DNA of 64,000 nucleotides from NCBI GenBank assembly GCA_021770245.1, contig JAETRI010000008.1, positions 4,927 through 68,926 on the forward strand, written 5' to 3'. The position numbers and the translations under genes were made by a program. This DNA is from Lachnospiraceae bacterium (lineage in GTDB: Bacteria; Bacillota; Clostridia; Lachnospirales; Lachnospiraceae). The notes beneath the pieces are model-generated. The model did no database searches, was not told where the DNA came from, and saw only the letters and a program-made list of their open reading frames with translations. Positions within the stretch are counted from its first letter, which is position 1; each line of letters begins with the position of its first letter. This document shows, piece by piece, positions 391 through 60,909 of this stretch.

Positions 391-588
391 TTGCTCCCAT
401 CCGCGTGCGAAGCACGCATTTAAATCAGGGAGGCTGAAAGCGTCCTTCTTTCAGCCTTGCTCCCATCCGCGTGCGAAGCACGCATTCAAATCAGGGAGGC
501 TGAAAGTGTCCTTCTTTCAGCCTTGCTCCCATCCGCGTGCGAAGCACGCATTTAAATCAGGGAGGCTGAAAGCGTCCTTCTTTCAGCC
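391..588 (-). repeat. 3 x 66-bp head-to-tail tandem repeat filling the argS 5' leader (units 391-456, 457-522, 523-588)
   Basis: Unit (plus strand): ttgctcccatccgcgtgcgaagcacgcatttaaatcagggaggctgaaagcgtccttctttcagcc. Only 2 substitutions, both in the middle unit. Each unit has two hairpins (gcgtgc-gaa-gcacgc; ggctgaaag-N7-ctttcagcc). All three minus-strand frames contain stops. Confidence 0.9.
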
Positions 589-633
589 TTAACCTTATCA
601 TGCCGCGTCCCGCGCGGCAACGCGATGCGAAAT

Positions 634-4525: not shown

Positions 4526-4649
4526 ATCTTCCTCACATTCCGCCGCCGCAGGGCGGCAAAGCATTTAAAAAGGGGAGAACCATTTATGGGAGCGCCGCCG
4601 CGAAACGATATTCGAAGGGACGCACCTCTCCGTCCGGGGATACGGCATA

Positions 4650-12290: not shown

Positions 12291-13158
12291 CACACCCTCC
12301 GTTCTGCCGCCTGCGGGCATCACTGAAATCGGAGGGCTCTAAGATCATCCGCTGGACGGGATAGCCGAACTCCGTCAGCAGCTCCGCTTCCGTAAATCCG
12401 AGCCGCCGGTATGCCGCGCGCTGTCCCGTATCGGCCCTGTCATTCTCCCGGAATGTGGTGATACTGATTTCCCGATCCGCAACGATTTCGTATCGGATGA
12501 AATCCAGAAACGCTTTTTCTATTCCGTATCGCCGGTACTGCGGATGCACTCCCAGGAAACCGATCCTTCCCGTCCGGCGGGAGAAAGCGGTCCCGCCGAC
12601 CACAATCCCTTTATCCCGCATGAGTAATACCTGTCCTAACCCGATATCATATTTGAGGCGCTCCGCATGCTTTCCGGCATCAAAACAGGGGAACCCGTCG
12701 ATCACCAGAGGGACAAATTCCATCCATGCCTGCATATCCGCATACCCGGCATAGGCAATACGCGTATCCGGCTCATCGAAGGCAGACGGATCGCCGTTTA
12801 AGGTAAATGCCAGCTGCAGCGGATAGAATTCCCCGTTTCCCCGGTATTCCAGGGGCGTCCGTTTATACATGTCTTTGAAAATACCCGTAAAAGCCTGCTG
12901 GCTCTCATATCCCGCGTCCTGCGCAATTTCCAGGATCGGTTTTCGTGAAAACACCAGCGCCGCTGCCGCTTCGCTCAGCGCTCTCCGGCGGATATAATCA
13001 TGCAGGGTCATCCCGACCGTATCCGTAAACGTACGATGCAGGTGATATTTGGAATAATGCACCCCGCATGCTACCTTCTCCAGATCCGGTTTTTCTCTCA
13101 GATGGGTTTCCACATACGCAAGCGCCGCATTGATGCTCTCAATTGCACGATGTCCCAT
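12283..13158 (-). CDS. AraC-type HTH domain fused to a GNAT acetyltransferase domain
   Basis: N-terminus has the AraC HTH signature (YSKYHLHRTFTDTVGMTLHDYIRRRAL...IAQDAGYESQQAFTGIFKDMYKRTPLEYR). C-terminus is GNAT-like (IGFLGVHPQYRRYGIEKAFL...AAYRRLGF). The stop overlaps the MATE start by 8 nt. Confidence 0.7.
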   Translation of the reverse strand: MGHRAIESINAALAYVETHLREKPDLEKVACGVHYSKYHLHRTFTDTVGMTLHDYIRRRALSEAAAALVFSRKPILEIAQDAGYESQQAFTGIFKDMYKRTPLEYRGNGEFYPLQLAFTLNGDPSAFDEPDTRIAYAGYADMQAWMEFVPLVIDGFPCFDAGKHAERLKYDIGLGQVLLMRDKGIVVGGTAFSRRTGRIGFLGVHPQYRRYGIEKAFLDFIRYEIVADREISITTFRENDRADTGQRAAYRRLGFTEAELLTEFGYPVQRMILEPSDFSDARRRQNGGCDA

Positions 13159-13418: not shown

Positions 13419-13565
13419 GAACAGGCACCTGCCGGTCCCATTGAGAAACGTGGGAACAAGGTTGAAAACCTCACTGATTTGGAGGCGCGCTAAAGCGCGC
13501 AAATGGAAACAAAGATAAATTCCCTGAATGAAAGGCCGCCTGGCGGCGGCAGAATGGGAGGAAGT

Positions 13566-16146: not shown

Positions 16147-16224
16147 AAGTTCCCTCTCTTTCTGCCGCTTCTGGCGGCGTGCCCGTTTATCGGGCCCTCC
16201 GGCTTTTTTGTTCCGACACTCCGC

Positions 16225-16268: not shown

Positions 16269-16275
16269 TTCGTTA

Positions 16276-16436: not shown

Positions 16437-16535
16437 TCACGACAAACGCGTACATGGCCCTGCAGCCCTTGTGCAACCCCGCAGGAACCCGGACGCCGGG
16501 GTGTCCGAACCGTTACGCGTTTTAACGTAACCGCA
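16437..16535. repeat. family B repeat (copy B10)
   Basis: gacaaacgcgtacatggccctgcagcccttgtgcaaccccgcaggaacccggacgccggggtgtcc. Same cores as the other copies (gacaaacgc; ccccgcagg..cccggacgc). Confidence 0.55.
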
Positions 16536-16543
16536 TGATACCC

Positions 16544-18214
16544 TCATCTGCGGATCTGATAGGCGATGTAGGCGTCGTCCTCAAAGACCACTTCCATATT
16601 CTTTTCGATCCATTCCCAGGGGAAATCTTCCGTATCCCTTTCATAGGGCCAGATGAGCCCGTTTCCCTCCGAGCCGGTCTGGATTTTGTCCATCAGCACA
16701 TAATCCGGCTGTTCGTCCGTCATCACGAGCGCCTTGCCGCGACATTTCTCCAGATGGAAATACAGGTTCAGGCGGGCATACACGTCCCCCACCAAAACGG
16801 TGTCCACCTTCGTCTCGTCCAGCTGCCGCAGGGCCGCGTAGATATGGTTGTCCCGGCTGTCATAGCCCATATGGTAGGAGGGCCTTATGAAGCAGACAAA
16901 AAGAAGGCAGAAAACGGCGGCCGCAGGAAGAATGCCTCCTGCCCTTCCCATCCTTTTCCCCTGCGGGAAACGGGGCGGAGAAAGCCAGCGCTTCCTTACC
17001 GTCCGGAAAATCCGGTATCCCGCCAAAGTAAACAGCATGGCGAGCACGCTTCCCATATAGGTGAATACGCGCAAGTAGGGAAATACGCACTGCAAGAACA
17101 GAAAAACGGGTACCATGACCGTTAGTATTACGCAGTACAGGGACGCAAAAAGCCGGGTGCGTTCCTTTTGACGGAAGGCACGGACGGATTGCACCAGCAT
17201 CACCGCCAGGGCGGCCGGAATGAGCACGGCCAATACCCCGGCCCCTCCGTGGTATACCTGATCCAGTACCTGCATCAGATAAGAGCCGATCCCGTCAAGG
17301 AATTGACCCCGATCCACGCTCTGGATGTTCGGGTCGGACAGCATCGCGCGCATCCCGCGCAGGAAGGCGGCAGCCGGGGCGCGCAGGATCATCTGCACAT
17401 GGCCCATCCCGTAATAGATGCTCCCCTCCTCCTTCACCAGAAAGTTGGAGCCTATGGCGAGCCAGATCACCGTATAGAGGCCGAAGGTTACGGCCGCAGC
17501 CCCGGCGGAGGCGGCAATCAGCCGGCCCAGCCGGCCGTAGTCCCGGCAGATCAGAAGAAAAAACCCGCCTGCCAGGCAGATTGGAACCACCCAATACAGA
17601 TTGCTCGGAATGGTATACAGCCCGCCCGTTAAGCAGGCCGCGAACCCGATATAATACCATACCCTGCTTTTCCTCAGGGAAACGGCTTCCTCCCCGGGCA
17701 CGCAGATTTCATACAGCAGGTTCACCGCCCCCAGCAGGAAAAATCCGGAGAGCGCATAACCCCGTCCCTGGACCGCCTGCTGGGTTACATGATACATCCC
17801 GGCAAAAAGCCCGGTCCCCAGGAAGGCCCAGAAAGGCTCCACCGCCTTCTTTAAGATGCGGTATAACAGGAGCAGGCTGCCGAGAGAGGCCGCAAAGGAT
17901 ACGCCCCTCAGCCCCAGCCACGGACTGCCCAGCTTGTTCACCGCAGCGGACAGGGCGGAGAAGAACACATGGTTATTGGGGAGGGGCCAGTGGATCATGG
18001 AATAGACCACCCCTCTGTCGATGAACATCTCATAGGTATATAATTCGTCATACCAGGGCGGCATGGCAAAAAGCCGCCACAGATAATAGCATGCCAGGCA
18101 TAAAAACAGGACGGAAAACGGCACATTGCCTTTCACCCATGCAATTCCCTTTTCAAACCGGAGCATCTTTCTTTTTTGGGGAACCGCCTGCTCCCCTGCC
18201 GCCCTTTCCGTCAT
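16544..18214 (-). CDS. polytopic membrane protein, GT-C fold (family 39 / ArnT-PMT-like) glycosyltransferase candidate
   Basis: About 12 predicted TM segments, a first-loop acidic motif (PPWYDELYTY), and a soluble C-terminal domain. The ORF-track N-terminus (to 18355) overlaps the ABC gene in another frame, so it is trimmed to ATG 18214 (MTERAAGEQ). Function assigned by architecture only. Confidence 0.45.
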   Translation of the reverse strand: MTERAAGEQAVPQKRKMLRFEKGIAWVKGNVPFSVLFLCLACYYLWRLFAMPPWYDELYTYEMFIDRGVVYSMIHWPLPNNHVFFSALSAAVNKLGSPWLGLRGVSFAASLGSLLLLYRILKKAVEPFWAFLGTGLFAGMYHVTQQAVQGRGYALSGFFLLGAVNLLYEICVPGEEAVSLRKSRVWYYIGFAACLTGGLYTIPSNLYWVVPICLAGGFFLLICRDYGRLGRLIAASAGAAAVTFGLYTVIWLAIGSNFLVKEEGSIYYGMGHVQMILRAPAAAFLRGMRAMLSDPNIQSVDRGQFLDGIGSYLMQVLDQVYHGGAGVLAVLIPAALAVMLVQSVRAFRQKERTRLFASLYCVILTVMVPVFLFLQCVFPYLRVFTYMGSVLAMLFTLAGYRIFRTVRKRWLSPPRFPQGKRMGRAGGILPAAAVFCLLFVCFIRPSYHMGYDSRDNHIYAALRQLDETKVDTVLVGDVYARLNLYFHLEKCRGKALVMTDEQPDYVLMDKIQTGSEGNGLIWPYERDTEDFPWEWIEKNMEVVFEDDAYIAYQIRR

Positions 18215-21853: not shown

Positions 21854-22323
21854 TTCCTGCCTTCCTCCTTATCCAATCTGCTGTTTTCCTTTTCCATGTT
21901 CCGATAGGCCCGCTCCATATACTGCCAAAACCGCGCCACCTCCTCATCGGTAAAGCCTGCAAAGAAGCATCTGTCCACCTCCTGGAAAAGACGGATGCTT
22001 TCCCGTATCACATCCTTCCCCTTCTCCGTAATGTTCACCTGGTTGATCCTGTTATCCGAATGGGCGGCCTCTCTGGTAATATATCCTCCTTTTTCCAGCT
22101 TTTTCAGGGTAACGGCGACCGCCGCCGCGGATACGTCGAATTTCTCCGCCAGCTCCACCTGGGAACAGCTGGGCCGGTGGTCCAGGATCATCAGCAGCCG
22201 GTGCTGCGAGGGGTAGACACCCGTATTGCATACCATCCTGTCTATATAACGGCGAAGCATGGCGTCCACCCTGCGGAACATGCCGGCCGCCTGACGGGTC
22301 AGTTCGCTCCTTTCGATCTCCAT
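21850..22323 (-). CDS. MarR family transcriptional regulator
   Basis: 157 aa with a winged HTH (PSQHRLLMILDHRPSCSQVELAEKFDVSAAAVAVTLKKLEKGGYITR...DNRINQV). First gene of the ABC operon. Confidence 0.85.
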   Translation of the reverse strand: MEIERSELTRQAAGMFRRVDAMLRRYIDRMVCNTGVYPSQHRLLMILDHRPSCSQVELAEKFDVSAAAVAVTLKKLEKGGYITREAAHSDNRINQVNITEKGKDVIRESIRLFQEVDRCFFAGFTDEEVARFWQYMERAYRNMEKENSRLDKEEGRN

Positions 22324-22412
22324 CCCGTTTTCGTCTCCTTTCTTAATCTCCCACCGGGCGGATGAGGGACGGGCCTATGGAAGTTAATTAGTTAATCGTT
22401 ATCTGGTTAATT

Positions 22413-22441
22413 ATTGTAGCAATGTCTCTTTTCTCTGTCAA
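22413..22441 (-). promoter_or_regulatory. sigma-A promoter of the marR-ABC operon
   Basis: Minus strand reads TTGACA-17 nt-TACAAT. Just downstream there are three GTTAAT(T/C) repeats (22383, 22391, 22406), a plausible MarR operator. Confidence 0.6.
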
Positions 22442-22454
22442 GGAGAAATTTGGC

Positions 22455-22525
22455 AGATGTATGCCAGAAATCACGAATGCGATTTCGCATCGCGATTCAG
22501 CTTTGTGCCGCTGCGGCACAAAGCG
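22455..22525. repeat. partial copy of the family A element
   Basis: cacgaatgcgatttcgcatcgcgattcagctttgtgccgctgcggcacaaagcg parallels gcggatacgatttcgcgtctgtgatccc...gccgcctgcggcacaaatgcc of 43276-43330. Confidence 0.45.
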
Positions 22526-22759
22526 TTCTTTTCCTATTTCATTTTATATCCGCTTTTTTCTATTATATCGCCTCCCTTTTCTAATAGCAAATGCTTTTCT
22601 GTTTTGGGTATGGCCAAATTCCTCCTGAAATAGCCTGGAAAAGCCCATAAAATCAATGATTGTACGGCTCAATAAGGCGCTTACTCCACCACTACTACAC
22701 CATTTTTTGAAAGAGCCTTGAAATGACAACAATAGAAACCGAAGGTCATTTTATCAATC

Positions 22760-22795
22760 TTTACTTTCTCGCTTAAATTGAGTATAATTTAAGCG
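22760..22795 (+). promoter_or_regulatory. abiE promoter with a perfect 10-bp inverted repeat bracketing the -10 (candidate AbiEi operator)
   Basis: TTTACT-17 nt-TATAAT (22783-22788). cgcttaaatt (22770-22779) and aatttaagcg (22786-22795) are exact inverted repeats. Confidence 0.5.
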
Positions 22796-22817
22796 AAAAA
22801 GTAAAGAGGTGAATTCC

Positions 22818-23411
22818 ATGGGTAAATATGATATTCTGCAACAACTGATAGAGAGAAACAATGGTTATCTTTTATCGGCCATGGTAAATGAGAACAATAT
22901 ATCTAAGGCAGTACTGTCAAAATATATCAAAGAAAAAGGGTTGGAAAGGATTGCAAGGGGTATTTACATTACGGATGATGTGTGGCCGGACGAACTGTAT
23001 ATCATGCAAATGCGAAACAAAGCAGTTATTTTCTCAGGTGAAACAGCACTGTACCTTCATGGCTTAATAGACAGGGAATACTCTGAGATTTGTATTTCCG
23101 TGCCGACAGGCTACAACGCTTCACATTTAAAAACCGAAAATGTGAGGGTAAAATATGCCTCAAAAAGCAGTTATGGACTTGGAGTATGTACTGTGCCTTC
23201 AACGAGCGGAAATATGGTTAAAGTTTATGACAGAGAACGATGTATCTGTGATTTAATTTCAGACAGGAAAAAAATAGAAGTACAGAATTTTCAAACTGCC
23301 ATAAAAGAGTATATGTCAGGCAAAGGTAAAAAATTATCCAGACTAGTCGAATATGCGGAGAAGCTTGGGACGAGAGATGAAGTCATGAAATATGTGGAGG
23401 TATTTGGATGA
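22818..23411 (+). CDS. abiEi: type IV toxin-antitoxin system AbiEi family antitoxin
   Basis: ILQQLIERNNGYLLSAMVNENNISKAVLSKYIKEKGLERIARGIYI... is an AbiEi_4-like wHTH N-terminus. ATG 22818 lies 8 nt after aaagagg (the ORF track uses GTG 22809). Stop/start ATGA overlap with the next gene. Confidence 0.8.
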   Translation: MGKYDILQQLIERNNGYLLSAMVNENNISKAVLSKYIKEKGLERIARGIYITDDVWPDELYIMQMRNKAVIFSGETALYLHGLIDREYSEICISVPTGYNASHLKTENVRVKYASKSSYGLGVCTVPSTSGNMVKVYDRERCICDLISDRKKIEVQNFQTAIKEYMSGKGKKLSRLVEYAEKLGTRDEVMKYVEVFG

Positions 23412-24259
23412 TTCATACTTCAAAACAACTGAAGGATAAGGTGAGGAATATCTCAAAAGGGGACAACAATATTGCAAAGGTATTGATCAGGAATTTTATT
23501 ATGGAGCGTTTTTGGGAAAGAGTATCTGTGTCTGATTACCGCAATCATTTTGTTCTGAAAGGCGGCATGTTGGTCGCCTCCCTTATAGGTATTGATATAA
23601 GGGCAACCATGGATATTGACACAACAGTGAAATCACTTCCAGTGAATGCGGACGATGCACAGAGAATCGTTTCTGAGATATGTGCTATCCCGTTGGAGGA
23701 TAATGTTGCCTTTCGGATTACTTCTGTGTCAGATATTATGACCGATTTCGAATATCCCGGTGTTAGAATGATGCTTGAAGCTGTATTGGAGCGAATAAGG
23801 CAGCTTATCAAGATTGATATTTCGACAGATGATGCGATTACACCATCTGCAATGGAATATGAATATAAATTGATGTTTGAAGACAGAACAATTCCGCTTC
23901 TTACATATAATGTTGAAACATTGCTTGCGGAGAAGATACAGACAATTTTAGCAAGGGGAATTGCCAACACCAGACTGAGGGATTATTATGATGTATATGA
24001 AGTTATGAAAATATGTGCAGCCAGGGTAGATAAAAATATCCTGTTACAGGCATTTTGCGCCACCTGTAAAAAGAGGGAAACGCTGTTCTCAAAAGAGGAA
24101 ATGTCAGAAACTCTTGCATTGATAGAAAAAGACGCAGGGATGGCGGGAATGTGGGAGCAGTTCAGGAAAAGGAATTATTTTGTGGGCAATTTGGAATGGA
24201 AAGAGGTCTTAAATGGTGTTTTGGATGTGATTTATATAAATCACCTTTGGGGAAAGTAG
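23408..24259 (+). CDS. abiEii: nucleotidyltransferase AbiEii/AbiGii family toxin (DUF1814)
   Basis: FIMERFWERVSVSDYRNHFVLKGGMLVASLIGIDIRATMDIDTT... is the typical DUF1814 N-terminal NTase motif (KGG..., DIDxT). 283 aa, paired with AbiEi. Confidence 0.85.
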   Translation: MIHTSKQLKDKVRNISKGDNNIAKVLIRNFIMERFWERVSVSDYRNHFVLKGGMLVASLIGIDIRATMDIDTTVKSLPVNADDAQRIVSEICAIPLEDNVAFRITSVSDIMTDFEYPGVRMMLEAVLERIRQLIKIDISTDDAITPSAMEYEYKLMFEDRTIPLLTYNVETLLAEKIQTILARGIANTRLRDYYDVYEVMKICAARVDKNILLQAFCATCKKRETLFSKEEMSETLALIEKDAGMAGMWEQFRKRNYFVGNLEWKEVLNGVLDVIYINHLWGK

Positions 24260-25228
24260 CGTCTCCTCCAGGATCTTAACAGCGATTTCCCGCGCCTTGG
24301 AACTGGTCACCTCCGCATCCGCCGTCTCATCCAAATGCACACAGAAGTAAACCCTTCTGCCGGCGCACTCCGCGAAACCGGTATACCATGCATCGACAGT
24401 GATGCCTGCCGCTTTTCCCATCCCGGTTTTTCCATAAATCAGAATCCCCGTTTCCTCAGATTCCGGCAGCAGCATAACCTGCATCAGCCGGCCTATCGTC
24501 TCCCGGGAATATCCGGAGCCGCTTTCGAAAATGCGTTCCATTACCTCTGTCTGTTCCTTCGGCGAAATTTTCAGCGACGATTCGATCCAAAACCCGGTAA
24601 GGGCCGGATTCCGGTTATTGGTATTCAACCGTCCCTCCCAGTCGGAAATATCCCGGTTTCCGTATTGAAGCTTATCCAGTCCGTCCTGCATCCTCTCCCT
24701 TCCGATTTCGTCGATCACCTGCCGGAAATACCAGACGCAGGAGGTACCAAACGCTTCGTCAAAGCCGATATCCCTGTTCCAGTCCTCGTTCCAAAATATT
24801 TCCCCGCTCCATGTCCGGACGGACCGGTCCGGATCCACGACGCCGCTTTCCAGCGCGAGCAGGGAGGAAATAATTTTAAAGGTGGAGCAGGGGGAGCGAC
24901 GTGTCATGGCCGCCTCCTGGTTGTAGATCCTATAGCGGTTTTCGGCCGGTTCATAGACGACGGCCGAACCGTTGATTCCGCCAAAGAAATCCTCCCAATC
25001 CGTCTGCTGCAGCAAAGGGGGCTTCGCATTCCCTTCCTCTTCCGGTTTTGCCGGCGATGCGGTTTCCTCCTCCGGCGCGGCCTCCATCTCCGCCGGTTCC
25101 TCCTCCGGCGCGGCCTCTATCCCCGCCTGAGACCGTTCCTCCGCCTGCCCGGCGCAGCCCGCAGGCATCAAAAGAAGGGCCGACAGCGCCAGATACCCGA
25201 TTCGGTTGATCCAATTGTGTTTTCCCAT
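24209..25228 (-). CDS. class D (OXA-like) beta-lactamase / BlaR-sensor-fold lipoprotein
   Basis: Lipobox LLMPAGCAG, Pro/Glu-rich linker, then STFK, YGN (LQYGNRDIS), KTG (YGKTGMG) and WYTGF motifs. Trimmed to ATG 25228 behind gcgaggg. The last 17 codons read into the AT-rich abiE island. Confidence 0.75.
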   Translation of the reverse strand: MGKHNWINRIGYLALSALLLMPAGCAGQAEERSQAGIEAAPEEEPAEMEAAPEEETASPAKPEEEGNAKPPLLQQTDWEDFFGGINGSAVVYEPAENRYRIYNQEAAMTRRSPCSTFKIISSLLALESGVVDPDRSVRTWSGEIFWNEDWNRDIGFDEAFGTSCVWYFRQVIDEIGRERMQDGLDKLQYGNRDISDWEGRLNTNNRNPALTGFWIESSLKISPKEQTEVMERIFESGSGYSRETIGRLMQVMLLPESEETGILIYGKTGMGKAAGITVDAWYTGFAECAGRRVYFCVHLDETADAEVTSSKAREIAVKILEETLLSPKVIYINHIQNTI

Positions 25229-25293
25229 ATTCCCTCGCATTCTGCCTTAATGGCCGGTCTATTTTTTTGATTTTATCACAACTCCCTTTTGCG

Positions 25294-25322: not shown

Positions 25323-25429
25323 ATGGCCCTTTCAATCATGCCACTCATGCATATAATAGAATACAGGCATGCCAAATCATAGTTGTGTGAAACTCCGGTA
25401 TTCGGCCGGAAAAGATGGGAGAGAGACTT

Positions 25430-26195: not shown

Positions 26196-26317
26196 CGAAA
26201 AATTCTTAGAGATGCCCGCGTTATCATGATCCATACCGAGCAAGCCGGAAATCTCTCGTTTTACGGGCCGCATTTCCGAAAAAAAGGCCGCCCGGGGGCG
26301 GCAGAATAGGAGAAAAC

Positions 26318-27532: not shown

Positions 27533-29986
27533 ATGCAGACCACTCCTATCAATCATCCACAGACCGGCGGGATCGATCTCTTTCGGATTCCTGCCGCCCT
27601 CCTGGTCGTCTCCATCCACACCTCTCCCCTCGGCTCCTTTGGCGGCGAAGCTGATTTTATCCTCACCAGAATTTTAGCCCGGACCGCGGTCCCCTTCTTT
27701 TTCATGGCCACCGGCTATTTTCTTCTGCCTCCCTGCTTTTCCGGGTCCGAACGTTTGGGACAGACAGAGGCCCTGGGAAAATCTTTCCGGAAAATACTGG
27801 GGCTGTATCTGGCCGCCACCCTGATCTATCTGCCCGTCGGTATCTATGCGGGCCATCTGCATAACAGGACGTTTCCTTCCCTGCTGCGCCTATTTCTGTT
27901 TGAAGGTACGTTCTATCATTTGTGGTACCTTCCGGCCTGTATACTCGGAATCCTCCTTCTGCTTCCGGCAGGCAGGCTGCTGCCCTTCGGCGCGCTGTTC
28001 GCCGTCACCGCCCTCCTGTACCTTCTGGGCCTGCCCGGCGACAGCTATTATGGTTTCCTGCCGGAAGGCAGCACGACAAAGAAGGTCTATGACTTACTGC
28101 TGGATATTTTTTCCCAGACAAGGGGCGGCCTGTTCTATGCTCCCCTTTTTCTCGCACAGGGAGCGGGAATTCGGCTGCTCACAGAGCGTCGGGCAGACCA
28201 GGGCGTACCGCTCCCCAAGCGCTCGGCAGCACGGCATATACCGCTCCCAAAACGCTCGACGGCACCGCATATACCGCTCGCAGAAAGCTCGGCGACACGG
28301 CGCACACTGCTCTCGGCAGCACGGTCCGCACTGCTTCCGGAACGTCAGGCGGTAAGGCGCATACTGCTATGTGCCGGTCTCCTCTGCAGCCTGGCCGGAA
28401 TGACGGCCGAAGGTCTGCTCCTCCACCGCCTGGATGTCCAGAAGCATGACAGTATGTACCTGGCCCTGCCCCTTGTCATGTTTTTCCTTTTTTCCCTTCT
28501 TCTGACCGTCCGCCGTCCCCCGGACAGACACCTGAGGAAGCTTTCCACCTGGATTTATCTGCTCCATCCCCTGGCGATCATCCTGGTACGCGGTGCGGCC
28601 AAGGCGCTACATCTGGAACAACTTTTCATTACAAACAGCCTGCTTCACTTTCTTTCCGTCTGCCTGCTGTCCTGGGCGCTGTCCGCCGTCGGCTGCCGTC
28701 TGGCCGACGCCCTGGGCGCCGCCTGCCGCCGGCTGCCGTCCGGCAAACGTCCCGGGTACTGTCTGCCGCTGTCCGGCGCCCTGAACGCTGTCTGCCGCCG
28801 TCTGGCCAACTCCCCGGGTACCGTCTGCCGCCGTCCGTCCTGCGTCTGTCCAAAAAGCGGCCGCACGAAACAACCGCCCCGGGCCTGGATCGAGCTGAGC
28901 GGCGACAGTCTGCGCCATAACGTGAGAGCTCTCCAAAGTCTGCTGTCTCCGGGATGCGCCCTGATGTGCGTCCTAAAGGCCAACGCCTACGGACATGGGG
29001 CGCTCCCTCTTGCCCATGCGCTGAACAGGATGGGCATCGACAATTTCTGCGTAGCCACCCTTTCCGAAGGAATAGAACTGCGCAGGGGAGGCATACGGGG
29101 CGAAATCCTGATCCTGGGCTACACCCACCCGGACCGTTTTTCCGACCTGGCAAAATACCGTCTCACACAGACGGTTCTGGACGGGGCCTATGCCGAACAG
29201 CTAAGCGCCTGCAAAAGGAAGCTGAACGTCCATCTGAAAATCGATACCGGCATGCATCGCTTGGGGGAACGTCCCGAAAGGGAGGATGAGCTATATCGGG
29301 TTTTTCAATACAAAAATCTCAGGGTGACCGGAACCTATACCCATCTGTGCTGCGCCGATTCCGATGAACCTGCGGATATCTCTTTCTGCACCGGGCAGAA
29401 AAATGCTTTCCGCAAAACCGTCCGCGCGTTGGAAGGGCGGGGCTGTGACTGCGGAAAGCTGCATCTTCTGGCCAGCCATGGCCTGATCCGCTATCCCGAA
29501 TGGGGCGGAGATCTCGTTCGGACAGGCATCGCTCTCTACGGCGTATTGAGCCGCCGGGAAGACCTGAAAAACTGTCCTGTCCGCCTCCGTCCGGTACTGT
29601 CCCTCAAGGCCCGGGTGGCCCGGGTTCAGACGATCCGCGCGGGCGAAGGGGTGGGATACGGGCTGGAATACGTGGCCGGACGGGACGGAAAGATCGCGGT
29701 CCTGGCCATCGGCTACGCCGACGGAATCCCCCGTTCCCTTTCCTGCGGCCGCGGAAGGGTTCTCATCGGCAGGCGGGAGGCGCCCATCGTGGGACGGATC
29801 TGCATGGATCAGATGTTCGTCGATATTACCGGGATACCGGACGTAAAAGCCGGGGATATCGCCGTTCTCATCGGGAAATCCGGGAACCGGGAAATCACCG
29901 CCTATGACCTGGCGGAAGGGACGGGCACCATCACGAACGAACTGCTGAGCCGTCTGGGCGGCCGGCTGGAGCGCGTTCTGCGCTGA
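27533..29986 (+). CDS. vanT: VanT-like membrane-bound serine/alanine racemase (acyltransferase_3 membrane domain + PLP racemase domain)
   Basis: N-terminus IDLFRIPAALLVVSIHTSPL...AVPFFFMATGYFL (acyltransferase-3, ~10 TM). C-terminus is an alanine-racemase fold with the PLP lysine motif VLKANAYGHG, plus YGLEYVA and ICMDQMFVD. 817 aa. Confidence 0.8.
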   Translation: MQTTPINHPQTGGIDLFRIPAALLVVSIHTSPLGSFGGEADFILTRILARTAVPFFFMATGYFLLPPCFSGSERLGQTEALGKSFRKILGLYLAATLIYLPVGIYAGHLHNRTFPSLLRLFLFEGTFYHLWYLPACILGILLLLPAGRLLPFGALFAVTALLYLLGLPGDSYYGFLPEGSTTKKVYDLLLDIFSQTRGGLFYAPLFLAQGAGIRLLTERRADQGVPLPKRSAARHIPLPKRSTAPHIPLAESSATRRTLLSAARSALLPERQAVRRILLCAGLLCSLAGMTAEGLLLHRLDVQKHDSMYLALPLVMFFLFSLLLTVRRPPDRHLRKLSTWIYLLHPLAIILVRGAAKALHLEQLFITNSLLHFLSVCLLSWALSAVGCRLADALGAACRRLPSGKRPGYCLPLSGALNAVCRRLANSPGTVCRRPSCVCPKSGRTKQPPRAWIELSGDSLRHNVRALQSLLSPGCALMCVLKANAYGHGALPLAHALNRMGIDNFCVATLSEGIELRRGGIRGEILILGYTHPDRFSDLAKYRLTQTVLDGAYAEQLSACKRKLNVHLKIDTGMHRLGERPEREDELYRVFQYKNLRVTGTYTHLCCADSDEPADISFCTGQKNAFRKTVRALEGRGCDCGKLHLLASHGLIRYPEWGGDLVRTGIALYGVLSRREDLKNCPVRLRPVLSLKARVARVQTIRAGEGVGYGLEYVAGRDGKIAVLAIGYADGIPRSLSCGRGRVLIGRREAPIVGRICMDQMFVDITGIPDVKAGDIAVLIGKSGNREITAYDLAEGTGTITNELLSRLGGRLERVLR
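28207..28345 (+). repeat. degenerate ~33-bp (11-codon) tandem repeats inside vanT
   Basis: ccgctccccaagcgctcggcagcacggcatata / ccgctcccaaaacgctcgacggcaccgcatata / ccgctcgcagaaagctcggcgacacggcgcaca... encode PLPKRSAARHI-PLPKRSTAPHI-PLAESSATRRT. Confidence 0.7.
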
Positions 29987-30817: not shown

Positions 30818-30825
30818 TTTCCCTC

Positions 30826-31443
30826 TCATTCCGCCGCCGCAGGCGGCTTTCCATTCATCAACAGGATTTTGTGCGGCAGCACCAATTTTTTGTGCGTGAG
30901 GTTATCGTGACGGAAAACGCCCTGTTCCCTTCGGATCTCTTCGGTCAGCCCCACCGTATACATCCGGATCTCCCCCATGAAAACATTGCTGTCCAGACAC
31001 CCTTTGGAGATCTCATCAAGCTTCAGCTCCCATTCGGCCGTCTGCTCCGGTTTCTTCAGTTCCTCCGGAACCAGCTGCAGCAGCTGCCTTGCTTTGGAGG
31101 TGAGAAAAATCTCGCTGCCTTTCTTTACCAACAAAAAGCCGTTGAACAGCTTTTCTATAATATCCGCTCGGGCCGCCACCGTGCCAAGTCCGCTCGTTTC
31201 CCCCAGGATCTTTGCCATCCGGGAATCCTGGGTTTCCATATATCGGACAGGATTCTCTATGGCGGAAAACAGAGCGGCCTCCGTGAACCTGGCCGTTAAC
31301 TGTACATACTGTTCGGCGGGAATGATCGCATGGTGATCGAATACCCTGGCGTCGTTCACAAAAGGGAGCTTTCCAAATTTTGCGTCTGCTTTGCGAACTG
31401 TTAGCTGAAGCCCTGGATTTATGCTGGTTTGAACAATATCCAC
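30826..31443 (-). pseudogene. C-terminal-core remnant of a DNA topoisomerase III (TopB) gene
   Basis: VFDHHAIIPAEQ, TEAALFSAIENP, GLGTVAARADIIEKLF and TAEWELKLDEISKG are TopB domain-III/IV landmarks. The Toprim and catalytic-Tyr regions (several hundred aa) are missing. Homology stops where AT-rich DNA begins (~31440). Confidence 0.7.
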
Positions 31444-31623
31444 ATTTTAGTTTACCAGACTCTTGTTTGGAAAAGTTTTCTACCTCTAATTTTGGTATCA
31501 AAATTAAGGAATTTGAATATTGAAAGTTGGAAAAATGGTTTGGGAAATTGATAAAACTGCTGTTTTTACTATATACAGAAGAAACAAGCAAAGTTTTCAC
31601 CGCCCTATCCCCACTATCCGACA

Positions 31624-31773
31624 TCATTTTCCCTGTTTCTTTCTGTTCAAATTAAATTCTTCTTCCGCTAATTCAATACGGTGCTGAATCTCTTTCTCGG
31701 TAGGCAGCTGCTTCTTAATCTCTTCCAATTTAATATTATCATAAGAGGCAACTCCCATAGGTGTTTGAATTCC
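31624..31773 (-). other. in-frame continuation of the DUF1016 gene beyond its TAG stop (49 codons)
   Basis: After TAG (complement of 31774-31776) the same frame reads GIQTPMGVASYDNIKLEEIKKQLPTEKEIQHRIELAEEEFNLNRKKQGK* . From memory this resembles the usual YhcG C-terminus (..KPIGVS.Y....LP...LPS.EE.E). Confidence 0.5.
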
Positions 31774-32886
31774 CTAAAATGCCCATTGCACTTCCGTCTG
31801 GTCTTTATCTTTGCAAATCAGCAATCCAATTGTAGGATTCTCATCCGGAGTTCGAATGAGGTCATTCACTGCATTAACATAAAAATTCAATTTTCCTGCA
31901 AATTCCGGCTCAAAGGAAACCGTCTTCAGCTCAACTACTACATAACATTTAAGACGGATATGGTAGAACAACATATCAATCTTTCGTGTTTTCCCTGAAA
32001 TCACAATTTCCTTCTGCCTTCCGATAAAAGCAAATCCCGTTCCAAGTTCCAGCAAAAACCTGGTAATATTCTGTTCCAGAGCCGTTTCCAATGCTGCCTC
32101 ATCATATCCTCTTGGCAAAGAGATAAAACTGAAATCATAGGTATCTTTTACAATCTCCTGTGCTATCTTTCCCTGTATCCCGGGGAGCTTTTCCGCAAAA
32201 TTTGTATTTGCCATTCCCGTGTTATGGTATAAATCAGCTTTTATACAATCAATTAAGGCATTTCGGCTCCAGCCTTCTTCAATTGTGCTCTGAAGATAAA
32301 ACAATGCCTCTTCCACGGAATTACATTTTGAAACAATTTCTACATGATGGCGCCAGGGCACAAAACCGAAAAAAGAGGGAAATGACATTTCTGCACCCAC
32401 TTGGTGCAGTTTTTCTTCCTCGTTATTTTCTTGAATTTCTGCACCAATCTGCTGCAGTTTTATACTATCAAGTTTTAATTTATCATCCACTGCATGAATT
32501 AAATCACCTGAAGTTCTAGCCAATGCATAAAAAGAATACCATTTTTTCATATTCCAAAGATTTCTGGCTGAAAATCCTCTCACCTCTGGGAATTCATGCT
32601 GTAAATCAAGGCTTAACTGCTCAACAATACCTTTTCCCCATTTTTCCTCCGTTTTTCGCAAAACAAGATCCCGTCCCAGTTGCCAATTGAATAACAACTG
32701 TTCTGAGTTTACCTTCACAGCTGCTTTTATCTGTGCACTTCTAAAACGTTCCTTTATATCATGAATCCACTGTACATAATCAGAATCTAAATGCACATCA
32801 TGAGAACTTACAACAATCGGAGAATCTCCCTTTTTGTTCTGCAATAATTTCTCCCCCTTTAATAATATTCTTTTCTTGCATATCAA
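31774..32886 (-). CDS. PDDEXK nuclease domain protein, DUF1016 / YhcG family (ends at a probably premature TAG)
   Basis: Four-helix N-domain (YVQWIHDIKERFRSAQIKAAVKVNSEQLLFNWQLGRDL...FSARNLWNMKKWY) and a PD-(D/E)xK core (GFAFIGRQKEI...IDMLFYHIRLKCYVVVELK). TTG start uncertain. AT-rich. Confidence 0.75.
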   Translation of the reverse strand: MICKKRILLKGEKLLQNKKGDSPIVVSSHDVHLDSDYVQWIHDIKERFRSAQIKAAVKVNSEQLLFNWQLGRDLVLRKTEEKWGKGIVEQLSLDLQHEFPEVRGFSARNLWNMKKWYSFYALARTSGDLIHAVDDKLKLDSIKLQQIGAEIQENNEEEKLHQVGAEMSFPSFFGFVPWRHHVEIVSKCNSVEEALFYLQSTIEEGWSRNALIDCIKADLYHNTGMANTNFAEKLPGIQGKIAQEIVKDTYDFSFISLPRGYDEAALETALEQNITRFLLELGTGFAFIGRQKEIVISGKTRKIDMLFYHIRLKCYVVVELKTVSFEPEFAGKLNFYVNAVNDLIRTPDENPTIGLLICKDKDQTEVQWAF

Positions 32887-36065: not shown

Positions 36066-36115
36066 CCCAGGACAGCCCCAGGACAAACGCATGAATAGCT
36101 CTGCGTTTGTCTTGA
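36066..36115. repeat. family B repeat, short form (copy B4)
   Basis: ccccaggacagccccaggacaaacgcatgaatagctctgcgtttgtcttgagg; arms gacaaacgca / tgcgtttgtc. Confidence 0.6.
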
Positions 36116-39380: not shown

Positions 39381-39447
39381 TTGTGCTCCCATCTGCGCGC
39401 CTTAGCGCGCATACCAATCAGGGAGATTGAAAATGTCAATTTTCAAT
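39381..39447 (-). promoter_or_regulatory. single clean copy of the 'hairpin + CUCCCUGAUU + GC hairpin + AGAUGGGAG' leader module
   Basis: Minus strand: gAUUGAAAAUugacAUUUUCAAUCUCCCUGAUUGGUAUGCGCGCuaagGCGCGCAGAUGGGAGCACAAAUG. The first hairpin contains the stop of the SGNH gene, and GGGAG is the SD of the DUF4358 gene. Confidence 0.6.
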
Positions 39448-40404
39448 CTTTTCATCCTCTCCCTGCATTCCTTCCGTTTCTGCTTCGTTAGACTCTGCCG
39501 TCCCGTCGGCCTGCGTATCCTCCAGGGTTTCCGCCGGTTCCTCCTCCGGAACCGGATATCCGATCTTCTCTCCCACATATTTACGCAGCACGTCGGTCCA
39601 TATCTCGTAGGCCGCCGCTGTCTGATGGACGAATCCGTCGCTGCAATACTCTGCGGCCAGATTTCCTTCGCTGTCTGCCAGGGGCGTCGCCATATCGATG
39701 AATCCCCATCCGTTCGTCTCCGCCAGCGCTTTCATCTCTTCATTAAAAACGCGGATATTATCGTTGTTCAGCCGTTTTTTCCCCTGGCCCTTCAGGGTGT
39801 AGGTCATGCTGATGATATGGATATCCACATCCGGATTCAGTTCCCGGATATGGCCGATCACCTCCTGATAGCATTTACAGGTATCATCGTCCACCCCCAG
39901 GTCATTCATACCGAAAAACAGGAACACGCTTTTGGCCCCCATCATGGAAATGGATTCCCAAACCGGCTGCTGCTTCCCCTTATACAGAGGATGGACGCTC
40001 TTTTCACTCACCGGCCAAAGGGCATTGTGCACGGAAAAACTTCCCGCCGCAAGAAACCGCATGGATTTCAGCGATGCGTCCGCGCTCTTCATACAGTAAT
40101 TCCGGTATCCCAGGACGATGGAATCTCCCACGATCACGCTGTCCGCGAAATAGGCGTCTATTTTCAGGTCTGCCACCGTACGCCCCGTGGCCGCCGCTTC
40201 CTCCTCCAGCCTGCGTTCCTCCTCTTCCAGCCGCTTTTCCTCGGCCATCTGCGCGATCCCGGGCACGTTCACCACGGCCGGCTCCGACTCCCGAAGCTGC
40301 GCGGAACCATTCCTGCGGCCCTCCGTCGCCCCGGGACTGCCCGCTCCCATCAATATGGCCATGCAGAGTCCGGCAGCCAGGATCATGGAACTCTTTTTTC
40401 TCAT
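39436..40404 (-). CDS. SGNH/GDSL hydrolase family protein (secreted)
   Basis: Signal peptide, block I VIVGDSIVLG, block III FFGMNDLG, block V DGFVHQT. Acidic C-terminal tail. Confidence 0.75.
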   Translation of the reverse strand: MRKKSSMILAAGLCMAILMGAGSPGATEGRRNGSAQLRESEPAVVNVPGIAQMAEEKRLEEEERRLEEEAAATGRTVADLKIDAYFADSVIVGDSIVLGYRNYCMKSADASLKSMRFLAAGSFSVHNALWPVSEKSVHPLYKGKQQPVWESISMMGAKSVFLFFGMNDLGVDDDTCKCYQEVIGHIRELNPDVDIHIISMTYTLKGQGKKRLNNDNIRVFNEEMKALAETNGWGFIDMATPLADSEGNLAAEYCSDGFVHQTAAAYEIWTDVLRKYVGEKIGYPVPEEEPAETLEDTQADGTAESNEAETEGMQGEDEKIEN

Positions 40405-43228: not shown

Positions 43229-43240
43229 TTTGACTCCTTT

Positions 43241-43362
43241 CATGCCGTGCCCTTTGCGGCGCCGCGACGTAAAATTGCGGATACGATTTCGCGTCTGTGA
43301 TCCCACTTGGGCCGCCTGCGGCACAAATGCCGGTTGAAAATGGCCTGAGGCCATTTTCAACC
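43241..43362 (-). repeat. family A structured element (copy A1) inserted between the two permease cistrons
   Basis: catgccgtgccctttgcggcgccgcgacgtaaaattgcggatacgatttcgcgtctgtgatcccacttgggccgcctgcggcacaaatgccggttgaaaatggcctgaggccattttcaacc. Near-identical to 46952-47076 by hand alignment. Confidence 0.8.
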
Positions 43363-44267: not shown

Positions 44268-44464
44268 TGATACTCCCGTCTGCCCGCTTTTGCGGGCATT
44301 TATTCAGGATTGCTCCCGTCCGCCGCCTCCCCGGCGGCATAGAACCGGGATTCCCCCGACCGCCGCCTCCCCGGTAGCAGCTCCATCGGGATTACCTCCC
44401 ATAATCCGGTACTTTTACTGCCGGCGGCATCTTCCGATGCCGCCGGCCCCATGGACAGGCCGCC
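44268..44464 (-). promoter_or_regulatory. intercistronic hairpin array: 12-bp GC hairpin after the SBP stop plus three tandem leader modules
   Basis: Minus strand: GCCGGCGGCAUCggaaGAUGCCGCCGGC ... CCGGGGAGGCGGCGGUCGGGGGAAU ... GCCGCCggggaGGCGGCGGACGGGAGCAAU CCUGAAUAAAU GCCCGCaaaaGCGGGC AGACGGGAGUAUCAAUG. Confidence 0.6.
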
Positions 44465-46941: not shown

Positions 46942-46951
46942 TTTAACCCTC

Positions 46952-47076
46952 CATGCCGCGTCTTTTGCGGCACCGCGCCGTAAAATCGCGCATGCGATTT
47001 CACAGCTGTGATCCCATTTGGGCCGCCTGCGGCATAAATGCCGGGTTGAAAAAGGCCATCGGGTCTTTTTTCAACC
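46952..47076 (-). repeat. family A structured element (copy A2) between the TetR stop and the CPBP start
   Basis: catgccgcgtcttttgcggcaccgcgccgtaaaatcgcgcatgcgatttcacagctgtgatcccatttgggccgcctgcggcataaatgccgggttgaaaaaggccatcgggtcttttttcaacc. Its distal hairpin contains the TetR stop, and its proximal end abuts the CPBP SD (ggaggg). Confidence 0.8.
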
Positions 47077-47736: not shown

Positions 47737-48060
47737 ACAAATGTAACAATTCAGCTGCCCCGCAGGCTCCCGGACGCCGGGGCGCACAGGGAAGGATCCT
47801 GACGGAAGCCATCTGCCGCTTTGGAGCTGCTTCTTAAGCCGATGGGATCGGCTTCCCTGCGAATGCGGCGTTGTCCGACGAACGCAGCAAGGAGTTTAGC
47901 CGCATTCGCAGGGTCCGAAGCCGGGAGCAGCGGCTTTAGAAGCAGCCCAAAGCGGCAGCGGGTTTCCGGCAGGATCCTTCCCTGTGCGCCCCGGCTTCCG
48001 GGAGCCTGCGGGGTGGATAAACTGTTACGGACAAACGCATGAATGGCCTTGCGCCTGCCG
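47737..48060. repeat. ~270-bp composite inverted repeat built from family B blocks (copy B5)
   Basis: Left arm ccccgcaggctcccggacgccggggcgcacagggaaggatcctgacggaagccatctgccgctttggagctgcttcttaagcc pairs with right arm ggctttagaagcagcccaaagcggcagcgggtttccggcaggatccttccctgtgcgccccggcttccgggagcctgcgggg. Flanked by ggacaaatg (left) and ggacaaacg (right). Confidence 0.85.
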
Positions 48061-48127
48061 CGGCGATTTTCACATCCCGCATCGACATGACCGTCCTTAT
48101 CTGCTATACTGAAACATATGAATCCTT

Positions 48128-48180
48128 TCATGCCGCGTCCTTTGCAGCAGTGCGATTTCTCATCCGCGCTAATATTTCTG
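48128..48180. repeat. partial family A element (copy A3)
   Basis: catgccgcgtcctttgcagcagtgcgatttctcatccgcgc shares the catgccgcgtc.tttgc.gc head and the gcgatttc block with A1 and A2. Confidence 0.45.
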
Positions 48181-52805: not shown

Positions 52806-52892
52806 TGGCCAGGACAAACGCATGAATGGCCTTGCGGCCCCTGCGCCACCCCTGCCCGCCCCCGAGGCGTGTGATGATCCATCAGGGATCAT
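52806..52892. repeat. family B repeat (copy B6)
   Basis: ggccaggacaaacgcatgaatggccttgcggcccctgcgccacccctgcccgcccccgaggcgtgtgatgatccatcagggatcatc. Closely matches 63919-64000. Confidence 0.8.
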
Positions 52893-54764: not shown

Positions 54765-54850
54765 GGCCGGGCAGAGGCAGCAAACGCACGAATGGCCCTG
54801 AAGCCTCTGCGCCATTTATGCGTTTGTCCCACCGCCCCCATTGTCCCACC
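54765..54850. repeat. family B repeat (copy B7)
   Basis: gggcagaggcagcaaacgcacgaatggccctgaagcctctgcgccatttatgcgtttgtccc. The complementary pairs are interleaved: gcagaggc/gcctctgc and caaacgca/tgcgtttg. Confidence 0.7.
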
Positions 54851-57462: not shown

Positions 57463-58232
57463 AAACCACAATCCTGAAAAAAATCTATATCGCCCTGATT
57501 TTCCTCTTCCTCTATGCCCCCATCCTTACTCTGATGGTGCTTTCCTTCAATGCCAGCAGGACGAGGGCCAAATGGGGCGGCTTTACCCTGAAATGGTATC
57601 GGGAGCTTTTCCAAAACCGGATTATTCTGGAGGCTCTGTCCAATACCCTGCTGATCGCCCTCCTCTCCGCCGTCATTTCTACCGTCATCGGCACCGTGGC
57701 CTGCCTTGCCATGGATCGGATGAAGCGGCGCAGCCGGGCTGTTTTAATGGGCATCACCAATATCCCCATGCTGAACGCGGAGATCGTCACCGGTATTTCC
57801 CTGATGCTCCTGTTTATCAGTATGGGGGTCCGGTTCGGTTTCGGGACGATCCTGCTTTCCCACATCACCTTCAATATTCCCTATGTAATCCTGAGCGTGA
57901 TGCCCCGGATGAAGCAGTTAAATCCCAGCACCTTTGAAGCGGCCATGGATCTGGGCGCATCCGGGCCGAAGGCCTTTTTCAGCGTGGTCTTTCCCGACCT
58001 GCTGCCGGGAATCCTCTCCGGTTTCCTGATGGCCTTTACCATGTCGCTGGACGATTTCATCATTACCCACTTCACCAAGGGGCCGGGGATCGACACCCTG
58101 TCCACCAAGATTTACACCGAAGTGAAAAAGGGAATCAAGCCGGAAATGTATGCGCTTTCCACCCTAATCTTCGCCGCCGTGCTCCTGCTGCTCTTCCTGG
58201 TGAACAGGATGCCCGGCGAAAAAACTCCCTGA
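57459..58232 (+). CDS. potC: spermidine/putrescine ABC transporter permease
   Basis: EAA loop STFEAAMDLGASGPKAFFSVVFPDLLPG. TTG start overlaps the potB stop, with ggggaggga upstream. Confidence 0.9.
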   Translation: MKTTILKKIYIALIFLFLYAPILTLMVLSFNASRTRAKWGGFTLKWYRELFQNRIILEALSNTLLIALLSAVISTVIGTVACLAMDRMKRRSRAVLMGITNIPMLNAEIVTGISLMLLFISMGVRFGFGTILLSHITFNIPYVILSVMPRMKQLNPSTFEAAMDLGASGPKAFFSVVFPDLLPGILSGFLMAFTMSLDDFIITHFTKGPGIDTLSTKIYTEVKKGIKPEMYALSTLIFAAVLLLLFLVNRMPGEKTP

Positions 58233-58299
58233 TTTGGATGCCCGCTAAAGCGGGCAGATGGGAACACGCATGAAGAAAAGCTACGAGGAGGAATCATCG

Positions 58300-60793: not shown

Positions 60794-60909
60794 TTTTTCC
60801 TCTCATTCTGCCGCCGCCCGGCGGCCTTCCGTTCAGGGACTTTTCTGCATCAGGTAACTTTTTTCGTGTTACCCGGAGCAAACTCCGGATTGAAAATTTT
60901 TAATCTTCC

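Follow-up and report, generated by a model that had tools for sequence, protein, structure and literature searches.

In Proteobacteria, the REP/BIME, ERIC and Correia (NEMIS) elements are multi-copy palindromic intergenic repeats that form stable hairpins, occur in clusters and within operons, are patchily distributed, and can stabilise mRNA or direct its processing. Their usual place is 3' of stop codons or at any point in a spacer, and both orientations are often seen. RAYT transposases are associated with REPs, whereas Correia elements possess terminal inverted repeats and target duplications. The BOX (boxA-boxB(n)-boxC) and RUP/SPRITE elements of Streptococcus pneumoniae are modular structured intergenic repeats with variable internal tandem modules, and BOX elements, which are confined to streptococci, are transcribed with neighbouring genes and can alter their expression. 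To our knowledge, no REP/BIME, ERIC or Correia element carries a Shine-Dalgarno (SD) sequence at a fixed distance from a start codon, and BOX is neither positioned as a ribosome-binding site nor known to supply an SD. Mycobacterial interspersed repetitive units (MIRUs) are described as ~40-100 nt long, single or tandem, located between co-oriented genes and oriented with transcription (PMC12548453). The same account characterises them as apparently mobile elements that insert at start codons with downstream expression preserved (PMC12548453, summarising Supply et al. 1997), expression being kept via a small open reading frame (ORF) whose stop overlaps the downstream start in a -4 nt coupling (PMC12548453). 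Here we describe a leader module that recurs directly 5' of start codons in 64,000 nucleotides of DNA from a Lachnospiraceae bacterium (assembly GCA_021770245.1, contig JAETRI010000008.1, positions 4,927 to 68,926 of the forward strand; this whole stretch is called the window below), and for which the MIRU is the closest analogue.

The module is an interspersed and tandem repeat element present in a subset of Lachnospiraceae, with a core of ~50 nt and a full unit of 65-67 nt. At least two interchangeable subtypes, A and B, are assembled from common modules, namely a hairpin H1, a CCCUGAUU box, a GC hairpin H2 and an SD box. Type A runs from an optional AU-rich H1 through CCCUGAUU and a further 6-7 nt to H2 and AGAUGGGAGCAA, and type B consists of GCCGC-loop-GCGGC followed by RGAAUGAGAGG (longer consensus RGAAUGAGAGGAAA). 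The 3' box that would serve as the SD is AGAUGGGAG in type A and GAAUGAGAGG in type B. H1, the CCCUGA box, H2 and the SD box recur in rearranged combinations across types A, B and C, and exact copies of type B were also found in those foreign genomes where type A is present. We favour the reading, at a probability of roughly 60%, that this repeat is mobile or duplicative, settles at ribosome-binding sites in the orientation of the transcript and rebuilds a working SD there, so that a self-propagating element is tolerated.

Like the MIRU of that account, the element forms tandem arrays (a 66-nt unit in three copies), follows gene orientation, sits 5-6 nt before starts and has filled and empty sites. 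Unlike the MIRU as described there, it has no through-ORF coupling and instead carries an SD and two covarying hairpins; the comparison is by description, between elements of different phylum and base composition. No reading frame is conserved through the unit, as 59 of 142 copies are closed in all three frames; 24 of the 142 have a frame ending in an AUGA overlap, and that frame varies between subfamilies. Upstream ORFs often terminate within or just 5' of the element, and an upstream stop at a fixed element position was rejected, since the stops fall anywhere between -40 and +19 without favouring one position. The modular structured build in a Firmicute resembles BOX, to which the element has no known sequence similarity, and its palindromic and clustered character resembles REP/BIME. 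Rfam 15 applied to the whole window at gathering thresholds passes only a tRNA (16276-16346), a permissive E-value scan of the argS array gives at best 12-16 bits against cut-offs of 44-88, and full-text literature searches yielded no description of the element and only the MIRU analogy. The earlier note on this DNA knew of no named element with this layout, and no Rfam family matches it; the element therefore appears undescribed and akin to intergenic repeats of the MIRU, BOX and REP type. Its taxonomic spread, its two related subfamilies with their common modules, the SD-like box at either side and the likeness to MIRUs go beyond what that note had recognised.

The observed repeat family is real and non-random. 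A covariance model, R1, was built from 82 copies and run against the window with filters off at E<1e-3; it returned nine copies, with E values of 1e-19 to 2e-4, at six genes (argS with three copies, DUF4358, potD, vanZ with two, a permease, and a response-regulator or REC gene), each on the gene strand. Type B has no covariance model of its own and was scored by a pattern count with a shuffle control: GCGGCRGAAUGNGAGG, with at most two mismatches, occurs eight times in the window against 0.62 expected, and seven of the eight matches lie directly 5' of starts (carB, vanZ, GH42, bla-like, ddl, ybaK and REC). Five further genes, beyond the six of R1, carry type B. These counts uphold the earlier note's recurrent leader of GC hairpin plus box in gene orientation, and the group it had set apart as hairpin plus box only proves to be the second subfamily, type B. 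Its figure of at least 14 start codons is slightly generous, because the MATE, ECF-S and TetR instances are plausible but individually non-significant, which leaves 11 statistically supported genes.

A gene map of the window drawn from codon usage (~47 genes) places the module ends 4-8 nt 5' of a start codon, always on the strand of that gene. A GC hairpin ends 0-8 nt 5' of the SD at 10 of 80 putative window starts, compared with a positional background of 1.8% (p = 2e-6), and such a hairpin beside an SD occurs at 0 of 639 starts in related loci without the element. Chance pairing of ordinary terminator hairpins with ordinary SD sequences could draw on the fact that GC hairpins and GGAG motifs are both common at 55% GC, and on the vanZ hairpin, which is weakly terminator-like on the opposite strand. 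This explanation is refuted by covariance-model E values of 1e-10 to 1e-19, by the excess of pattern matches, by the related starts and by the lack of a U tract, and we give it practically no weight. An intrinsic terminator was likewise rejected: the sense strand has no U tract 3' of the hairpins, and sites resembling terminators are no more numerous than in shuffles. In the scanned region 1-17000, which holds the argS, carB, vanZ, MATE and GH42 copies, no hairpin was flagged as a terminator on the sense strand.

The position of the element relative to genes was analysed in 154 copies (145 foreign copies plus those of the window) from the window and about 20 Lachnospiraceae genomes. Thirty-seven are internal to tandem arrays, and among the 117 non-internal copies an ORF of at least 50 aa starts within the next 40 nt in 94, with AUG as the start codon in 83 of these. 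GGGAG and the start are separated by 5 nt in 50 copies and by 6 nt in another 20, which makes 70 of the 117 non-internal copies with a 5-6 nt spacing, compared with 9% of random-position controls at 3-9 nt, which bears out the enrichment at start codons expected from the earlier note. The next feature is another copy or a gene start in 131 of the 154 copies. Reverse-oriented copies are essentially absent from the set, and orientation tracks the gene on both strands of the window, the potD, vanZ and ddl copies lying on the forward strand and the copies of reverse-strand genes on the reverse strand. The AGAUGGGAG box can pair with the 3' tail of Firmicute 16S rRNA (5'-CUCCUUUCU-3') except for one U-U and one G-U. 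Because the box stands at SD distance, 5-6 nt 5' of the start, the element's own SD would most likely drive translation of any gene that gains a copy.

ViennaRNA predicts two hairpins per unit and a CCC:GGG helix of 3-4 bp that closes the GC hairpin, with z-scores of -2 to -4 for full copies. The interior pairs of H2 covary (GC 70 / CG 45 / AU 5 / UA 4; CG 69 / UA 38 / UG 14), and the observed covariation score was reached by none of 500 shuffles. Of 138 copies, 69 have an H1 whose stem is perfectly paired over at least 6 bp, compared with 6% of shuffles, and this stem occurs in compensatory variants (AGAUUG/CAAUCU, AGGUUG/CAACCU, AGGCUG/CAGCCU and AGGGUG/CACCCU). The earlier note had paired CUCCC with GGGAG, closing the SD into a helix, and compensatory changes were to be expected there. 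The complementarity is present; however, its CU, which ends the 3' arm of H1, is usually paired within H1, and it is H1 and H2 that covary, whereas the CCC:GGG helix is near-invariant, with 28 U-G, 7 C-A and five U-A double changes at one pair. This pattern is compatible with pairing and equally explained by conservation of the SD. In addition, the SD has a predicted unpaired probability of 0.44 compared with 0.49 at control ribosome-binding sites (partition function, p = 0.2); accessibility thus equals that of ordinary sites, and strong SD occlusion was rejected; helix closure as the working principle is not supported. An alternative helix between UUUG (after CCCUGA) and CAAA (after GGGAG) was also discarded, as 62% of cells pair and covariation is none. 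In the transcript, H1 and H2 would fold, and the short CCC:GGG helix, with its conserved UGA and GA(U) positions, would bracket H2.

The conserved bases of the unit raise a different explanation, in which the module is a host cis-regulatory unit, a genome-wide translational operator whose CUGAUU/AGAUG loop is bound by a global RNA-binding protein, an RNase or a small RNA. Binding, or a change in temperature or ions, would then shift the CCC:GGG helix and co-regulate the translation or processing of many unrelated genes. Among 56 copies outside the ascertainment pattern, conservation is 80-90% at the unpaired UGAUU and AGAUGGGAG, compared with ~50% for the H2 interior, so something reads those bases by sequence. 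In the minimum free energy folds of most type A and B copies, the SD is base-paired to a pyrimidine run that lies upstream, the excess of U-G over C-A in the CCC/GGG helix points the same way while being confounded by SD conservation, and copies are retained at orthologous ddl and perm1 sites. The CUGA and GAUG sequences could also form C-G, U-U, G-A and A-G pairs, as in the non-canonical stem of a box C/D kink-turn. Box C/D kink-turns and K-loops are bound by L7Ae-family proteins, including the bacterial YbxF/YlxQ. The GA/AG and U-U positions of the element are possible and conserved, and the adjacent H2 would correspond to the GC-rich Watson-Crick C stem. A canonical kink-turn was nevertheless rejected: it needs a 3-nt bulge in front of GAUG, and the element has 0-1 nt there, its unpaired 6-7 nt coming after CUGA, so that the bulge is on the wrong strand and the defining geometry fails. 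An operator is further at odds with SD accessibility at the level of ordinary sites, with a helix almost without true covariation and with downstream genes that have no common function. Gain and loss between close species, arrays of up to four units and absence from many related Lachnospiraceae would be unusual for a regulon. On balance, we regard a host operator as unlikely but as a serious alternative.

Comparison with related species indicates how copies come and go. One related species is represented by a 21-kb contig (L189, GCA_949740805.1) that shares synteny with the window at 33-52 kb. At the DUF4358 site the window has a copy, whereas L189 and L190 have none and their GDSL-lipase and DUF4358 genes overlap by 11 nt; an SBP site shows the converse, with a copy in L189 but none in the window. 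The copy at the first permease gene (perm1) is common to the window and L189 (4895-4944 there), with an identical AGACGGGAG variant in a surrounding spacer that has diverged, and at the second permease gene (perm2), where L189 has type A, the window shows a different repeat. In the related metagenome-assembled genome (MAG) CANSTU01, where the compared loci have genes 80-89% identical to those of the window, the ddl copy is orthologous (AGAAUAGGAG in the window, AGAUAGGAG in the MAG) while the remaining spacer has diverged. At ybaK, the window has type B and CANSTU01 type A, with a 5' flank common to both, and at bla a degenerate type B in the window stands against four type A units plus H1 plus type B in CANSTU01. 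A 26-nt H1 is identical between different loci of the window species and CANSTU01. The system is therefore modular, and copies are gained, lost, amplified, exchanged and sometimes long kept.

The borders of the copies suggest how they might be acquired. For the two filled/empty pairs, the sequences on either side of the inserted body look like the native SD-spacer segment, and an SD-like box stands just 5' of H1 in 31 of 47 first or single copies, compared with 16% of controls. These flanking boxes fit either a duplication of the target SD region or an element bounded by direct repeats of the box that recombine with native SDs. In the reading that we favour, copies would arise through insertion or duplication at ribosome-binding sites, which would leave an SD-like box on either side of the ~50-nt body; they would then amplify into tandem arrays, be lost or swap subtype, and at some genes persist across species. 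The element would be tolerated because a functional, context-insulated ribosome-binding site is rebuilt, and it may also tune translation modestly or protect the mRNA downstream. This upholds one reading of the earlier note, a dispersed and possibly mobile cassette for translation initiation, which we judge to be probably mobile; the mRNA-stabiliser role and the global RNA-binding factor that the note also put forward are conjectural. Filled and empty sites, tandem arrays and start-codon spacing are all observed. We infer transcription through the element, its mode of spreading and its effect on expression. A tentative variant, which we think unlikely, would combine mobility with function: mobile DNA that homes to ribosome-binding sites, rebuilds the site on insertion and has its CUGAUU/AGAUG loop read by a dedicated protein, giving genome-wide translational control in those lineages of abundant gut commensals in which about a quarter of the genes have a copy. 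Homing could then proceed by SD and start-codon recognition or by recombination, because an SD-like box lies on both sides and the (A/G)UUGAAA of the H1 5' arm resembles, and could mimic, AUGAAA gene starts.

The mobile character could alternatively reside in the DNA, as in a REP-like element whose hairpins act in single-stranded DNA, are recognised by an HUH (IS200/RAYT-type) or other recombinase, and are associated with starts through a survival filter. The H2 palindrome is flanked by the conserved CCCUGAUU and AGAUGGGAG, with 145 matches in 514 kb, and covarying palindromes with conserved boxes, near-identical copies, tandem clusters and assembly breaks are typical of REP/BIME. In addition, the H2 core has 28 G-U against 18 A-C, and since G-U is only modestly above A-C, the structure is not clearly strand-specific. 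However, orientation tracks the gene and not the replication strand, reverse copies are essentially absent although they would be neutral in many spacers, no RAYT or IS200-type gene appears among the 10 window ORFs scanned with Pfam, and a survival filter explains the precise SD at 5-6 nt only in part. We therefore consider this account improbable. Two other classes of mobile DNA were rejected. The ends of the element (AGAUUGAAA... and ...GGGAGCAA) are not inverted repeats, as a miniature inverted-repeat transposable element would have, and its SD-like direct repeat is inseparable from element-borne terminal repeats; for an integron attC site, the end motifs differ and the flanking genes are syntenic housekeeping genes with or without the element.

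Several observations weigh against a self-propagating repeat that supplies an SD. In the 154-copy set, 23 copies are without a nearby start, and L189 has two degenerate copies in a convergent 3' region, absent from the window there. No transposase, recombinase or reverse transcriptase was found among the 10 window ORFs scanned with Pfam, and no repeated segment of at least 250 bp is common to non-orthologous loci, so a linked mobilising gene is missing from both. The use of the box as an SD is something we infer from its spacing and from textbook complementarity to the 16S tail. At potD, two in-frame starts are candidates: the AUG at 58270 lies 5 nt past the element box, and the AUG at 58300 has its own canonical GAGGAGG upstream and is followed by a lipoprotein-like MKK. 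The true start may thus be the ATG 30 nt downstream with the canonical SD, in which case the element may have produced an N-terminal extension or a false start call. Finally, conservation of UGAUU/AGAU above the level of the H2 interior points to a sequence-specific partner or a tertiary motif, long-term retention at ddl and perm1 points likewise, and a purely selfish element needs neither.

The distribution of the element is patchy. A strict IUPAC pattern scanned over one genome per species (185,579 species) matched at least 92 loci. Among the matches listed, about 75 are true copies with a complementary hairpin from more than 20 Lachnospiraceae and Clostridia genomes, the carriers including Eisenbergiella porci, Lachnotalea sp., Anaerocolumna sedimenticola, Lachnoclostridium sp. 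and unclassified Clostridia MAGs, and about 20 are hairpin-less chance matches in high-GC phyla. CANSTU01 alone has at least 50 copies, many with identical 50-nt cores. In contrast to these carriers, R1 has 0 matches in 579 kb around potD orthologues (74-86% identity) on 80 gut metagenome contigs, and the element is absent from the potC-potD junction in the 80 related metagenome loci. No matches were found in 2.9 million viral contigs, and none in the plasmid database PLSDB. In one potD-related metagenome lineage (L176, about 3890-4000, and L170), the potD leader includes an H1-like hairpin, GAUUGAAAAAUAAAAUUUUUCAAUC, and has a GC hairpin plus AGAAAUGAGGAG at its end; this leader is a more distant relative of the module, undetected by R1.

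Public short-read assemblies (Logan) give a further view of the filled sites. All DUF4358 contigs (15 examined, 10 shown) begin exactly 65 nt 5' of the ATG, at the distal end of the element, and for potD three of six contigs have their first base 33-67 nt 5' of the ATG, within the element or next to it. Such breaks at gene starts are as expected for a multi-copy repeat. No same-species strain with an empty potD or DUF4358 site was found among these contigs, each of which is either filled or broken.

A riboswitch or other ligand-sensing leader would likewise be a small structured RNA that overlaps the SD and has a conserved internal loop. Nonetheless, the genes downstream are unrelated (argS, carB, ddl, potD, vanZ and a response regulator among them), orthologous sites are filled or empty between species, tandem arrays occur, copies are found in a 3' region and Rfam is without a match. 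The earlier note had already argued against a metabolite riboswitch on the strength of the unrelated genes, and the species comparison and tandem arrays strengthen that judgement to the point where we think a riboswitch very improbable.

The copies of the window differ in completeness. A full single type A unit is the DUF4358 leader on the reverse strand, which reads AGAUUGAAAAUUGACAUUUUCAAUCU-CCCUGAUUGGUAU-GCGCGC-UAAG-GCGCGC-AGAUGGGAGCACAA-AUG. Its layout is as the earlier note gave it for 39381-39447, and the element ends two bases further, at 39449 (39381-39449). The full unit comprises H1 at 39424-39449, CCCUGA at 39418-39423, H2 at 39395-39410 and the AGAUGGGAG box at 39386-39394, with the ATG at 39380, and it scores 71.7 bits with the covariance model. 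Subdivided over 39449-39378, it reads AGAUUGAAAAU-UGAC-AUUUUCAAUCU / CCCUGAUUGGUAU / GCGCGC-UAAG-GCGCGC / AGAUGGGAGCACAA / AUG, and the stop of the upstream GDSL-lipase gene (39436) falls within the H1 loop. The argS array (391..590, reverse strand) consists of three type A units in an exact 66-nt tandem, as called by Tandem Repeats Finder (TRF), each built from H1 GGCUGAAAG..CUUUCAGCC, CCCUGAUUUAAAU, H2 GCGUGC-UUC-GCACGC and GGAUGGGAGCAA. The covariance-model matches lie at 390-438, 456-504 and 522-570 (E about 1e-16), and the final box lies 5 nt 5' of the argS ATG (387). The potC-potD spacer (58225..58269, forward strand) holds a type A unit without H1, with H2 at 58240-58255 and the box AGAUGGGAA at 58256-58264 before the ATG at 58270 (61.6 bits); the potC stop is the UGA of its CCCUGA (58230-58232).

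R1 also supports the leaders of the vanZ-like, permease and REC genes. The vanZ-like leader (13463..13565, forward strand; ATG 13566) has two adjoining units that score 40.8 and 33.2 bits. The first (13463-13513) is a degenerate type A with the box AAAUGGAAAC, and the second (13514-13564), with CCCUGAAUGAAAG, GCCGCC-UGGC-GGCGGC and AGAAUGGGAGG, is also matched by the type B pattern. In the ABC permease leader (perm1; 44268..44400, reverse strand; ATG 44267), a clear copy at 44269-44317 with the box AGACGGGAG scores 22.2 bits, and direct-repeat evidence adds two degenerate 40-nt units without H1. The leader of the REC gene, whose product matches Pfam Response_reg, is type B (60794..60846, reverse strand; CCCUGAACGGAAG, GCCGCC-GGGC-GGCGGC and AGAAUGAGAGG; ATG 60793) and has both 24.6 bits and an exact match to the type B pattern.

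The remaining type B leaders are supported by the pattern. On the reverse strand, carB (4526..4577) has a hairpin at 4542-4557 followed by GGAAUGUGAGG before the ATG at 4525, and the ybaK-like gene (30818..30867) has GCCGCC-UGC-GGCGGC and GGAAUGAGAGGG before the ATG at 30817; both match the pattern. So does the type B-like ddl leader on the forward strand (26283..26317), where GCCGCC-CGGG-GGCGGC and AGAAUAGGAG precede the ATG at 26318. The GH42-like leader (16147..16180, reverse strand), also type B-like, has GCCGC-CAGAA-GCGGC and AGAAAGAGAGGG before the ATG at 16146, with one mismatch to the pattern, and the beta-lactamase-like leader (25229..25260, reverse strand) has a degenerate type B box AAGGCAGAAUGCGAGGG before the ATG at 25228, with two mismatches. 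Possible members that are not significant by themselves precede a MATE gene (12291..12325, reverse strand; GCCCGC-AG-GCGGC and AGAACGGAGGG) and an ECF-S gene (25395..25429, forward strand; a weak hairpin and AAGAUGGGAGAG).

Other repeats occur in the window. A third repeat family of ~115 nt has copies at 43229-43345 and 46942-47060, both on the reverse strand and 87% identical, and partial copies at 589-625 and 48119-48155. It lies directly upstream of unrelated genes, a second ABC permease and an Rce1-like protease, opens with an H1-like hairpin (GGUUGAAAAU..AUUUUCAACC) and closes with a GC hairpin plus AUGAAAGGAG plus AUG; its 3' module also precedes the argS array. A dispersed intergenic repeat, GGACAAACGCAUGAAUGGCCUUGCG..., occurs in five copies (36081-36114, 48029-48062, 52812-52879, 54778-54811 and 63917-63987), two of which extend to ~70 nt with 86% identity. 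A ~90-nt repeat, GUAACAnUUCA..CCCCGCAGGCUCCCGGAnGCCGGG.., is found at 5989-6079 and 47743-47833 (77% identical), with inverted relatives near 47990 and 16488; unlike the leader module, it occurs in both orientations. Overlapping tandem repeats of 33-40 nt at 28200-28850 lie within the ORF at 27533-29986, as a GC-rich coding repeat of Pro/Ala/Gly type. The window also holds a low-GC island at 22000-24300 (42% compared with ~56%) with an AbiEi/AbiEii type IV toxin-antitoxin pair (22809-23411 and 23408-24259). A second low-GC stretch at 30826-32886, where a topoisomerase C-terminal fragment (30826-31443) adjoins a YhcG-type PDDEXK nuclease/DUF1016 gene (31774-32886), looks like a disrupted gene or an inserted island.

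The leader module has practical consequences, in that it breaks short-read assemblies at gene starts and can mislead start annotation, as at potD. Its copy-number-variable arrays could serve strain typing, in the manner of MIRU variable-number tandem repeats (MIRU-VNTR). If mobile, the element would be a clean non-mycobacterial case of a repeat aimed at the starts of genes that leaves their expression alive, and a natural portable ribosome-binding site or insulator part; if a factor binds it, the genes behind it would form a large post-transcriptional regulon. Lachnospiraceae belong to the most abundant bacteria of the human gut. With ~11 of ~47 window genes starting behind a module, a sizeable part of the proteome of this bacterium would use ribosome-binding sites supplied by a repeat.

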